Shown here: positions 5,149 through 8,625 of the stretch, in pieces
How positions within the stretch are numbered: position 1 is the stretch's first letter
How the letters are laid out: each line of letters starts with the position of its first letter
Notes under the pieces: model-generated
Told to the model about the DNA's origin: nothing
Databases searched by the model: none
The model's input: the letters and a program-made list of their open reading frames with translations, nothing else
Made by a program: the position numbers and the translations under genes
Origin: Escherichia coli
Lineage (GTDB): Bacteria > Pseudomonadota > Gammaproteobacteria > Enterobacterales > Enterobacteriaceae
NCBI RefSeq assembly: GCF_044324875.1
Contig: NZ_CP172185.1
Length of the DNA: 64,000 bases
Direction: 5' to 3' (one strand)

Positions 5149-6342
5149 CTAAAGCGCACCGGCCTTCTGGCGTGCGGTAACAAAGGTCAGTACGCCAGCG
5201 CAAAGGAGCAGCACGCTACTCATAGCAAACGTGCTCTGCCAGCCAAGGCGGTCAAACACAATGCCTCCTGCCGTTGATCCAAGGGCGATGGCGAGCCGAA
5301 TCACCGCGACCATGAGCCCGCCTCCGGCTTCGGCGTTGTCAGGCAACGTACGCGCAATCCATGTCCACCATCCGGTTGGCGCGGCGGTGGCCAGCATGCC
5401 CCAGAGTCCTAACAGCAGCGAGACCGTCCAGACGTGATGCCCGGTAAGCATCAGACCGATGGCAATGACGGCCATCAGTCCGGGTATGGCCATCAGCGTG
5501 GGGTAGAATTTTCTGTTGAGAAATGCCGAAACAACCAGCGTGCCAATAAAACCGGCCACGCCGATAATCAGCAAAATCGACGACAAGCCTAAGGAATTAA
5601 CCCGTGTCACCGACTCCAGAAACGGGCGCACATAGGTGAATAGCGCAAACTGCCCCATGAAAAACAGGCCACAAGCTATCATGCCGACCACAACCATGCG
5701 GCGGCTAAATAAGCGGAATACCGCGCCACATGAAGTGTGGCTTTTATTCGCATCCATGCTTGGCAGGCTGATGCACTGCCAGATAAAGGCGACAACCGCG
5801 ATGGGCACCAGGCACAAGAAAGCGCCTCGCCATCCGACCGTAGCCCCCAGATAGCTTCCCAGCGGTGCGGCCACGACCGTCGCCAGCGCATTACCGGCGT
5901 TGAAAATTGCCAGCGCACGCGTGACCTGATGCTGCGGCACCAGACGAATCGCCGTTGCCGCTGACATCGACCAGAATCCGCCAATAGCCACACCAATCAT
6001 CGCACGACCGACCATATACATCAGATAACTGGAAGCCAGCGCAATAATAAGCCCCGATACGGCCATCAGAACCGTCATCCCCAGCAGCAGGAACTTACGA
6101 TTCATCTTTCCAGCTAGCGTTGAAAGCGTCAGGCTGGTCAGAACCGCCAGCGCGCCGGAGATAGCAATCCCCTGCCCTGCCAGCCCCTCCGTCACGCCTA
6201 AATCGCGGGTAATCGGCGTGAGCAGGCTGACGGGCATGAATTCAGAAGCAATCAGCACAAACACGCACAGGGTCATGGCAAAAATACCGCCCCAGTATGC
6301 GCGCTGATGATGAGGTGATAGTGTTTGGCTTAGTGTCGACAT
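5149..6342 (-). CDS. Major facilitator superfamily transporter
   Basis: 397-aa highly hydrophobic ORF with 12-TMS-like organisation and MFS-type glycine-rich loops. Confidence 0.8.
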   Translation of the reverse strand: MSTLSQTLSPHHQRAYWGGIFAMTLCVFVLIASEFMPVSLLTPITRDLGVTEGLAGQGIAISGALAVLTSLTLSTLAGKMNRKFLLLGMTVLMAVSGLIIALASSYLMYMVGRAMIGVAIGGFWSMSAATAIRLVPQHQVTRALAIFNAGNALATVVAAPLGSYLGATVGWRGAFLCLVPIAVVAFIWQCISLPSMDANKSHTSCGAVFRLFSRRMVVVGMIACGLFFMGQFALFTYVRPFLESVTRVNSLGLSSILLIIGVAGFIGTLVVSAFLNRKFYPTLMAIPGLMAVIAIGLMLTGHHVWTVSLLLGLWGMLATAAPTGWWTWIARTLPDNAEAGGGLMVAVIRLAIALGSTAGGIVFDRLGWQSTFAMSSVLLLCAGVLTFVTARQKAGAL

Positions 6343-6417
6343 AGTGAAATTTCACAAAGATCAGGATAAAAGCCACCAGCCTATGGCCGGTGGCTTTGCA
6401 TCAATTCAGGAGAGGTT

Positions 6418-7554
6418 TTATTTCAGTTTGGTCTGGAAAAATTGTTCGAACTTCGCGAAAGGTATTTTTCCGGCCACGTTATCGTACAGGTCCACGTGAT
6501 TTGCCCCTGGTACCACCACCAGCTCTTTGTCTTTACTGCCAACCGCCTTGTAAGCATCTTCAGCAAAATAGCGTGAATGCGCTTTCTCACCGGTCACAAT
6601 CAGCGTCGGGATGGTGATTTCACTGGCGTAGCTCAACAGCGGCATATTCATAAATGACAGCGGCATCGTTGCCGTCCACGCCCCGGTAGAGTTAACGGAA
6701 CGTTCGTGGAAGCCGCGCGGCATGCGATAGTAGTCAAAGAACTCTTTCAGTACCGGATGAGGATTTGCCGGCAGCGTTTCTGGCAGAATGCGCTCGCCCG
6801 CACTGACCTTGCCGTTGCTGTCGACATTAATATCATGACCACCGTGAGCGAACGTTCCGCTCTGCGCATCCTTCCAGCGCTGTTCATTCAGATATTGCAG
6901 AACAGCACGACGGTCGGCGGTAGAATAACGGTCTTTGCCATCCCCCACACCATGCCCCATCGCCCGGCTCATGTCATACATCACGCTGGTAGCTACCGCT
7001 TTAACGCGGGTATCCATCGCCACGTCGTTCAGCGCCATGCCGCCCCAGCCACAAATACCGAGCAGCCCGATACGGTTGCGATCTACCTCTTTTTGCAGCC
7101 CTAAGAAATCCACCGCCGCGCTGAAATCTTCAGTGTTGATATCCGGTGAGGCGACGTTTCGCGGATAGCCGCCGCTTTCCCCGGTGTAAGAAGGATCGAA
7201 CGCCAGGGTAACAAACCCTCGTTCCGCCAGCGTCTGCGCATACAGGCCGCTGGATTGCTCTTTCACCGCGCCAAATGGCCCACTGACCGCAATCGCCGCC
7301 AGCTTGCGATCGCCACGGTCTTTAGGCAGGTAAAGATCGCCCACTAAGGTGATGCCATATCGGTTCGGGAACGAGACTTTACGGTGATCGACTTTCTGGC
7401 TCTCGGCGAACGTTTTATCCCATTTATCTGTCATGGACACAGGGGCATTAGGATTGGTTGAATCAGCATAACTCATTGTCGTGACTCCACTTAATGATGC
7501 GAAAAGCAGCATGGTCGGCATCGCGGTTTTTAGCGTGCGGGTGAAGGCTTTCAT
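6418..7554 (-). CDS. Secreted alpha/beta-fold hydrolase (dienelactone-hydrolase-like, possible Cys nucleophile)
   Basis: ORF with N-terminal signal peptide (MKAFTRTLKTAMPTMLLFASLSGVTTMSYA), LLGICGWGG elbow motif, C-terminal GANHVDLYD histidine region; start taken at the MKAF methionine (ORF track extends to 7575). Confidence 0.7.
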   Translation of the reverse strand: MKAFTRTLKTAMPTMLLFASLSGVTTMSYADSTNPNAPVSMTDKWDKTFAESQKVDHRKVSFPNRYGITLVGDLYLPKDRGDRKLAAIAVSGPFGAVKEQSSGLYAQTLAERGFVTLAFDPSYTGESGGYPRNVASPDINTEDFSAAVDFLGLQKEVDRNRIGLLGICGWGGMALNDVAMDTRVKAVATSVMYDMSRAMGHGVGDGKDRYSTADRRAVLQYLNEQRWKDAQSGTFAHGGHDINVDSNGKVSAGERILPETLPANPHPVLKEFFDYYRMPRGFHERSVNSTGAWTATMPLSFMNMPLLSYASEITIPTLIVTGEKAHSRYFAEDAYKAVGSKDKELVVVPGANHVDLYDNVAGKIPFAKFEQFFQTKLK

Positions 7555-7740
7555 AAAAATCCCCATAAAAAACAACAGAGAGATACAGGTTTCCGACGGA
7601 CAACGCTGCGGTGCTTTACTTTGATGGGGTCATTATAGTGAGCAGAATTAGTGCTGATTAGTGGGCGATTAATGCTAAGATTAATACCATATTGTTATAA
7701 ATTAATGCGGAGATTGCCGGCATGAAGGGGGGATGTTTCA

Positions 7741-8625
7741 ATGGCGAAAAGGGAGAACTACAACGAGCTGTACCTGTTTATGCAGGTGGTGCGGGAAGGC
7801 AGCTTTACCGCAGCGGCTCAGCGGCTGGGTCTTGCTCAGTCAGGAGTCAGCCGTTCTGTTCGCGAGCTTGAAGAAAGGCTGGGCGTCCAGCTGCTAGTGC
7901 GCACCACGCGTAAACTGTCGCTGACACAAGCAGGCGAGCAGCTCTACCAGAAGACGGCATCTGGATTTGAAATGTTAGATCTTGGGCTTGCCACGCTGGC
8001 GCACTATCGAGAGACGCCCTCCGGCACGGTGCGTATCAATGCCAGCCAGCACGCGATTGATAAATGCCTGCTGCCAAAGCTGGCGGTATTTAAACAGAGA
8101 TATCCTGATATCCGGCTTGAACTGATAAATGAGAGCCGGTTCGTCGATATCATCGAGGAAAGATTCGATGCAGGTGTCCGCCTGGGGCCTGAAGTCGGCC
8201 AGGGTATGGTCGCGGTACGCATCACGCCCGATATGGAGATGGCAATTGTGGGGACTCCGGAACATTTTCGTCGCTATGGTTTTCCGCAAACCCCGGCGGA
8301 TTTAAAGGCGCATCCCTGTATCGCCTATCAGTTTGCCGACGGCAGCGTATACCAGTGGGAACTCAATCAGGATGATAAAAAAATCACTCATCGCCCTGAA
8401 GGGCAATGGGCCCTATCCGACAGCTATATGGAAGCAGAAGCCGCCCGGCTGGGCCTCGGATTGGCCTATGTTCCTGTTGAACTGGTCGCGGATGATTTAG
8501 AACACGGTAAGCTTATCAGGGTGTTGCAGCGTTACAGCCTGCGAATGGAGGGATTGTTTCTCTATTACCCTCATCGCAACGTCTCCCCCGCCCTGCGGAT
8601 GGTCATTGATACATTGAAAATCTGA
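7741..8625 (+). CDS. LysR-family transcriptional regulator
   Basis: 294-aa ORF with N-terminal HTH (FTAAAQRLGLAQSGVSRSVRELEERLGVQLL) and LysR substrate-binding domain; divergent from the hydrolase-MFS pair. Confidence 0.85.
   Translation: MAKRENYNELYLFMQVVREGSFTAAAQRLGLAQSGVSRSVRELEERLGVQLLVRTTRKLSLTQAGEQLYQKTASGFEMLDLGLATLAHYRETPSGTVRINASQHAIDKCLLPKLAVFKQRYPDIRLELINESRFVDIIEERFDAGVRLGPEVGQGMVAVRITPDMEMAIVGTPEHFRRYGFPQTPADLKAHPCIAYQFADGSVYQWELNQDDKKITHRPEGQWALSDSYMEAEAARLGLGLAYVPVELVADDLEHGKLIRVLQRYSLRMEGLFLYYPHRNVSPALRMVIDTLKI

Follow-up and report, generated by a model that had tools for sequence, protein, structure and literature searches.

Three genes in a 64,000-nucleotide stretch of the Escherichia coli chromosome (contig NZ_CP172185.1; the window), encoding a transporter of the major facilitator superfamily (MFS), an α/β hydrolase and, divergently, a LysR-type regulator, are assigned by gene order, position and product to ovrB-z0347-z0348 (z0346-z0348) of O island 9 (OI-9) of strain EDL933. 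It is proposed with moderate confidence that the native target of OvrB is the adjoining hydrolase/transporter pair, and the same confidence extends to the mechanism proposed here as a whole. OvrB, a LysR protein paralogous to PgrR, would bind a conserved operator in the spacer that separates the two divergent genes, covering about −48 to −77 and also a weak −35 element, and upon binding a small-molecule co-inducer would control, in either direction, transcription of the hydrolase gene from a TAATCA-17-TATAAT promoter. A Sec signal peptide would export the hydrolase to the periplasm, where Cys168 and His353 would serve as a thiol nucleophile/general-base pair on the α/β-hydrolase scaffold and split an ester, thioester, lactone or amide linkage, the substrate probably being a small anionic molecule; a terminator hairpin would pass only part of the transcripts into the NepI-like MFS gene, whose product would move the substrate or product, in one direction or the other, across the inner membrane. 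The preliminary description of this DNA had proposed an inducible catabolic or detoxification module, which is plausible but unproven.

The three open reading frames (ORFs; Table 1) are far beyond chance, since they are long, have strong family matches and have orthologues in 912 of 5426 complete E. coli genomes, as counted for a 3.8-kb segment at a coverage of at least 80%; the E. coli matches to this segment split into two identity bands, at ≥99% and at 95–99%. The genes called in the preliminary description, and the divergent placement of the LysR gene, were confirmed, and both the DNA-binding and the substrate-binding profiles of LysR-type regulators match the regulator. RefSeq names the trio generically as 'MFS transporter', 'alpha/beta hydrolase' and 'LysR family transcriptional regulator'. 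Amino acid identity to O157:H7 Sakai is 98% for the regulator (ECs_0309; 289 of 294 residues identical), 99% for the hydrolase (ECs_0310) and 97% for the transporter (ECs_0311); the orthologues of ECs_0310 and ECs_0311, together with paoD, flank the LysR gene in the window. The gene list of OI-9, including z0346/ovrB, z0347 and z0348, is that of Liu et al. 2019 (PMC6768210). Both flanks are E. coli chromosome, with paoABCD upstream and a tRNA-Thr gene (thrW) and proA downstream. Identification of the LysR gene as K-12 yagP was ruled out at 28% identity, yagP corresponding to z0342/ECs_0305; the 'OvrB' of a Pantoea preprint is an unrelated 'OVRB' region.

The regulator and hydrolase genes are separated by a spacer of 186 bp (7555–7740), and the corresponding intergenic regions of 12 Enterobacterales and Aeromonas loci were aligned. 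The operator-like block ATTTATAACAATATGGTATTAATCTTAGCA is nearly invariant in the 12 loci and occurs once in the window, with 0 occurrences expected by chance; a second conserved block, CTAATCAGCAC-N5-CTGCT, overlaps the −35 element, and the −10 hexamer TATAAT is kept in 11 of the 12 aligned genera, being TAGAAT in Aeromonas. Of the T-N11-A dyads sought near −65 and −35, imperfect forms were found, in the blocks at −48 to −77 and over the −35; the hydrolase promoter is predicted to have the standard architecture of a LysR-controlled promoter. A simple promoter scan did not list it, as its −35 fits at only 3 of 6 positions. Transcription is predicted to start near 7625 on the minus strand, giving a 5' untranslated region of ~70 nt (7555–7625, minus strand; …AAAGCACCGCAGCGTTGTCCGTCGGAAACCTGTA…) that is well conserved among Enterobacterales; at E≤1 no Rfam match was found to this 70-nt leader or elsewhere in the module, the only match being the tRNA-Thr of Table 1.

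Comparative evidence points to the adjoining secreted Cys-hydrolase and transporter as the ancestral targets of OvrB. Among 80 loci fetched around hydrolase homologues, a LysR gene adjoins the hydrolase gene in about 11 outside the Enterobacterales (38–43% identity; 77% in Aeromonas), and an MFS gene of 43–61% identity adjoins it in about 12. Both are present in nine loci and in at least four gene orders, the hosts including Microvirga, Bosea, a Rhizobiales isolate, Brevundimonas, Pseudomonas guariconensis, Paracoccus, Luteimonas and an Oxalobacteraceae genome. Because the linkage survives rearrangement of gene order, a shared function of the trio is suggested; the linkage of the three genes, first read from their arrangement in the window, is borne out by this shuffled-order synteny in distant Proteobacteria.

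The homology search that the preliminary description had proposed places the hydrolase in the PA2218/YcjY family (COG1073 or 'FrsA, DUF1100' in the sources), with E=2.2e-125 (single sequence) and 2.9e-167 (profile) for 2HDW, and E=1.7e-43 (single sequence) and 1.7e-105 (profile) for YcjY; its Pfam matches are PETase, Hydrolase_4 and Abhydrolase_1. The values in the hydrolase comparison are 44 for 2HDW (PA2218), 36.7 for 5XB6 (YcjY), 30 for 7QJM (Chloroflexus enzyme '202'), 29.2 for 7D78 (DcsB thioesterase), 28.7 for 6LZH (GrgF) and 20.7 for 1DIN (classical dienelactone hydrolase). PA2218 of Pseudomonas aeruginosa (2HDW) and E. coli YcjY (5XB6) are structural entries without an assigned function, and nothing functional on PA2218, 2HDW, 5XB6 or the activity of YcjY was found in the literature searched; a 2013 review cites a motif-based cPHB-polymerase prediction for YcjY. 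Homologues of >50% identity occur in Proteobacteria, Bacteroidota, Negativicutes, Clostridia, Campylobacterota, Verrucomicrobiota, Elusimicrobia and Melainabacteria, and a search of 1.84 billion cluster representatives returned 462 matches at E≤1e-30. The equivalogs for UilS acyl-homoserine lactone (AHL) lactonase, bis(2-hydroxyethyl) terephthalate (BHET) hydrolase and lasso peptidase were rejected at scores far below their cutoffs; the match to the UilS-type AHL lactonase (NF047920) reaches 64.4 bits, over the N-terminal half only, against a cutoff of 400. With two crystal structures and wide conservation, the family is a reasonable target for enzyme-function discovery.

The 378-aa form of the hydrolase (MKAF...), which is the usual length among homologues, has a Shine-Dalgarno sequence (GGGGA) 5 nt upstream of its ATG at 7554. 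It begins with the signal peptide MKAFTRTLKTAMPTMLLFASLSGVTTMSYA, followed by DS; as a typical Sec signal peptide this runs from a basic n-region through a hydrophobic core to S-x-A at −3/−1 and ends in S-Y-A before the D; the secretion signal noted earlier is thereby upheld. By a simple heuristic, Sec, Tat (alphaproteobacterial RRxLLK) or lipoprotein forms of signal peptide are present in 65 of 70 full-length homologues, the window hydrolase lying just under the hydrophobicity cut-off of this heuristic (1.56 vs 1.6). Many E. coli records in RefSeq start the hydrolase at Met27 (352 aa, without the signal peptide; window 7465–7554), and the transporter is often started at Met23 (375 aa; window 6277–6342). 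The longer forms of both are favoured because the upstream codons and the ATG are conserved across genera; the Met27 start of the hydrolase is probably wrong. YcjY differs from the window hydrolase in having no signal peptide and none of the secreted-clade residues Glu323, His326 and Asp194.

The core of the α/β-hydrolase fold is present and places the nucleophile at the sharp turn that follows strand 5. The motif G-I-C-G-W-G-G holds Cys168 (encoded at 7051–7053), a residue shared without exception by 41 diverse family sequences from many phyla, YcjY included; its aligned counterpart in PET46, a MHETase and enzyme 202 is the Ser nucleophile, which in the first two lies in G-L-S-M-G-G, in agreement with the Cys that had been placed at the nucleophile elbow. 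In most homologues the mature part contains a single Cys, and Cys168 is the only Cys of the window protein. All 41 sequences likewise have His353 (N-H-V-D-L-Y-D), which lies in the loop that follows the last strand of the core and, in alignments with PET46, the MHETase and enzyme 202, takes the position of their catalytic His. At the canonical acid position after strand 7, where the fold has an Asp or Glu, the window protein has Ala325; the residues aligned with it are, in 7QJM, the latter of the two Asp in 'HSDAD' and, in PET46, Asp206 (a number counted from the alignment), the catalytic acid of that enzyme. Glu323, two residues before Ala325, is at least 90% conserved in the secreted clade and is Ser in YcjY, and Asp355 and Asp358 are invariant; Glu323 and Asp355/Asp358 are candidates for the acid residue. 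From conservation, then, the predicted Cys-His pair of the triad that was to be checked is well supported, and a classical triad is not.

A likeness to dienelactone hydrolases had also been proposed, and the α/β fold, the elbow Cys and the His after the last strand are indeed shared with dienelactone hydrolase (ClcD, 1DIN; PF01738); however, the combination of a DLH profile match with a Cys-His-Asp triad that marks this family was not found, and membership was rejected because an invariant Ala takes the place of the canonical acid. The invariance of four Arg residues (R132, R183, R226 and R280) hints at an anionic substrate. It is considered improbable that the protein is something other than a hydrolase, using Cys to form an acyl intermediate for transfer, cyclisation or polymerisation, or acting as a non-catalytic binding protein; the fungal DcsB thioesterase, GrgF and the oligo-hydroxybutyrate polymerase role once predicted for YcjY offer comparisons for such a function, but the periplasm offers no coenzyme A or acyl carrier protein thioester donors, the loci examined hold no biosynthetic neighbours, and catalysis is favoured by the invariant Cys/His pair, by the motif GPFGAVKEQ of the oxyanion region and by the single-Cys pattern.

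The hydrolase and MFS genes lie on the same strand with a gap of 75 bp, which agrees with the two-gene unit of the preliminary description; the gap is not free of terminators, however, as it holds an intrinsic-terminator-like hairpin and a U-tract (minimum free energy −28.6 kcal/mol, z=−5.6 vs shuffles), flagged by a terminator scan. Kluyvera, Serratia, Enterobacter and Hafnia retain the hairpin, 5 of its 12 pairs showing compensatory changes, and the MFS ATG at 6342 is invariant across genera. Because the hairpin precedes this start by ~24 nt and the scan found no promoter-like site between the two, the MFS gene would most simply be expressed at a low level by partial read-through, which is the only route left to co-transcription; the hairpin corrects the idea of a two-gene operon and does not overturn it. 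A 12-bp palindrome, GTGAAATTTCAC, before the MFS start was considered as a regulatory site and rejected, its right half not being conserved in other genera. The best NCBIfam match of the transporter is NepI, a nucleoside exporter, at 288 bits over the full length against an equivalog cutoff of 584; next come the sugar exporters of the YdeA type and the Cmx chloramphenicol exporters. With these DHA1 exporters the protein shares the MFS_1 fold and ~12 transmembrane segments (by crude hydropathy), and from its scores it is classed as a DHA1-like paralogue, a member of the MFS but not NepI.

Several observations weigh against OvrB having the adjoining pair as its native target, or against the mechanism built on it. 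The published target of OvrB, which is described, for O157:H7 only, as an activator of LEE1/ler and of attaching-and-effacing virulence genes of EHEC (enterohaemorrhagic E. coli), is LEE1 of the locus of enterocyte effacement (LEE), and deletions of z0347 and z0348 tested for adherence were without effect (PMC6768210). The LysR and hydrolase genes occur without the MFS gene in some Enterobacterales and Aeromonas loci (L004, L006, L007 and L017), and in Bacteroidota, Firmicutes and other phyla the hydrolase has different neighbours; a further difficulty is that all 41 aligned sequences have Ala where the canonical acid would be, so that the chemistry of the active site is not classical. DHA1-type MFS proteins are mostly exporters, a poor fit with simple catabolic uptake. 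Because several Enterobacterales and Aeromonas loci are without the MFS gene, the LysR-hydrolase pair is the tighter core and the transporter the looser partner. The neighbours in other phyla, often secreted and small, are Cyclophil_like2, cupin, CMD, flavodoxin_4, FMN reductase, aldo-keto reductase and hexapeptide acetyltransferase proteins, with AraC, LysR or MerR regulators; their flavour suggests small-molecule or stress chemistry, not cell-wall or polymer metabolism.

The three genes could also be mere neighbours, OvrB acting purely in trans as a virulence or global regulator and the hydrolase and transporter being independent of it, as might be read from LEE1/ler being the only published OvrB target, from the failure of a z0347 or z0348 deletion to reproduce the ovrB phenotype (PMC6768210) and from the strong terminator that splits the hydrolase gene from the MFS gene; yet the LEE is missing from the majority of organisms that carry the trio (Serratia, Kluyvera, Enterobacter, Hafnia and Aeromonas), and these keep the LysR-hydrolase pair and its operator/promoter. 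LysR, MFS and hydrolase genes recur, moreover, in shuffled order across Alpha-, Beta- and Gammaproteobacteria, and the paralogous pgrR-ycjY pair shares the layout and promoter elements; mere adjacency is given a small chance. A 2024 review (PMC10877973) explicitly lists the signal and native regulon of OvrB as open. With OvrB taken as regulator of the adjoining pair, the points added here make one question testable, namely what OvrB senses; the substrate of the hydrolase/transporter would probably reveal the ligand that tunes LEE expression.

Table 1. Features of the ovrB locus and its thrW-side neighbourhood, in window coordinates.
Feature	Position	Strand	Description
LysR regulator (ovrB)	7741-8625	+	294 aa; HTH_1 (PF00126) E=1.4e-23, residues 8-66; LysR_substrate (PF03466) E=4.7e-35, residues 91-293
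α/β hydrolase	6418-7554 (raw ORF 6418-7575)	-	best start ATG 7554; 378 aa
MFS transporter	5149-6342	-	397 aa; Pfam MFS_1 E=3.8e-37
Operator-like block ATTTATAACAATATGGTATTAATCTTAGCA	7702-7673	-	30 bp, about -48 to -77 from predicted start; T-N11-A type imperfect dyad
Second conserved block CTAATCAGCAC-N5-CTGCT	7661-7641 (7661-7651, then 7645-7641)	-	overlaps -35
Weak -35 TAATCA	7660-7655	-	inside CTAATCAGCAC block; 17 bp from -10
-10 TATAAT	7637-7632	-	
Intrinsic-terminator-like hairpin	6397-6366	-	13-bp G+C-rich stem, ATA 3-nt loop, then TTTTAT
92-aa ORF	9307-9585	-	matches Sakai ECs_0307
SDR oxidoreductase	9753-10304	-	183 aa vs 240 aa in ECs_0306
Phage-integrase C-terminal fragment	10263-10475	+	
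tRNA-Thr (thrW)	10493-10565	-	

The rest of OI-9 (window 8626–10680) is degraded in the window strain, and G+C falls to 0.38–0.42 over 8500–10000. The truncated short-chain dehydrogenase/reductase (SDR) gene adjoins the phage-integrase fragment, which is followed by thrW, and the yagP/z0342 LysR gene is absent. The SDR (z0343) was considered as a conserved pathway partner and set aside, the link being weak with orthologues in only 3 of the 80 loci. In O157 Sakai the order is full-length yagP, SDR, hypothetical gene, ovrB, hydrolase, MFS and then paoD; K-12 MG1655 (297381–298726 vs window 4970–8625) has only a 136-aa C-terminal fragment of yagP, joined directly to the paoD end. Because K-12 keeps this fragment while Sakai has full-length yagP and the genes before paoD, it is suggested that OI-9 is missing from K-12 by deletion and is not an O157-specific insertion.

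The genomes that match most closely differ from the window in the content of the thrW-side island beside ovrB; in E. coli CFSAN061763 (13060–18274) the island holds the toxin-antitoxin pair AbiEii/AbiEi together with a 1069-aa 'RNA-directed DNA polymerase'. Serratia marcescens UMH3 (4898–9125) has the same trio beside tRNA-Thr and proA at 86.6% nucleotide identity, with 95–96% amino acid identity for the regulator and hydrolase and in the opposite orientation, the MFS gene being proximal to the tRNA. Because the amino acid identity between Serratia and E. coli looks high for these genera, horizontal exchange of the trio at the thrW hotspot is suggested. About 20 kb from OI-9, Sakai ECs_0331-0333 (24952–26955) includes a second YcjY-family hydrolase, annotated 'ycjY', with its own divergent LysR gene ('ycaN') and an adjoining NADH-dependent flavin oxidoreductase, so that the pairing of LysR with a YcjY-type hydrolase recurs.

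Compared with OI-9 of EHEC O157:H7, the window has the same three genes in the same order with paoD adjoining; its copy is shorter at the thrW side, with a 5'-truncated SDR gene and no yagP (z0342). The island, its genes and the virulence role of the regulator are already published and the locus is already known; as a genome feature it is ordinary and already annotated, and none of the points added here would surprise a specialist. The signal peptide, Cys active site, operator, terminator and local regulation were outside the scope of the OI-9 paper (PMC6768210). Absent from the literature searched are the secreted single-Cys family, the Ala at the acid position and the conserved operator, promoter and terminator, as well as the pgrR-ycjY paralogy and the cross-class synteny that implies the hydrolase and transporter to be the ancestral regulon of OvrB.

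The window LysR-hydrolase pair is, from protein comparison, paralogous in both genes to pgrR (ycjZ)-ycjY of K-12, in which a LysR gene (OvrB and PgrR have 41% identity) is likewise divergent from a gene for a YcjY-family hydrolase (34%). PgrR is annotated as a repressor, and a genomic-SELEX (systematic evolution of ligands by exponential enrichment) regulon table gives its target as ycjY-ymfDC-mpaA (PMC5934670). This double paralogy opens a doubtful alternative, that the trio is a periplasmic counterpart of murein recycling by pgrR-ycjY-mpaA, in which the hydrolase would trim anionic murein peptides and OvrB would sense a cell-wall fragment: ycjY adjoins mpaA, ycjG and mppA in K-12, PgrR is annotated as a peptidoglycan-recycling regulator, the invariant R132, R183, R226 and R280 suggest a carboxylate-rich substrate and the window hydrolase is predicted to be periplasmic. 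However, no cell-wall gene was found among the recurring neighbour families of the 80 loci, which are of redox/detoxification types, regulators and NepI-like MFS proteins; the MFS protein is not AmpG-like, and no paper on the activity of YcjY itself was found in the literature searched. As for OvrB as the regulator of its adjoining hydrolase/transporter pair, the K-12 ycjY promoter shares with that of the window a CTAATCA −35, a 17-bp spacer and upstream AT-rich dyads, with a −10 of TATAGT vs TATAAT; K-12 YcjY is cytoplasmic whereas the window hydrolase is predicted to be secreted, and the genes that come after ycjY on its strand are ymjD, ymjC and mpaA, whereas the MFS gene comes after the window hydrolase.

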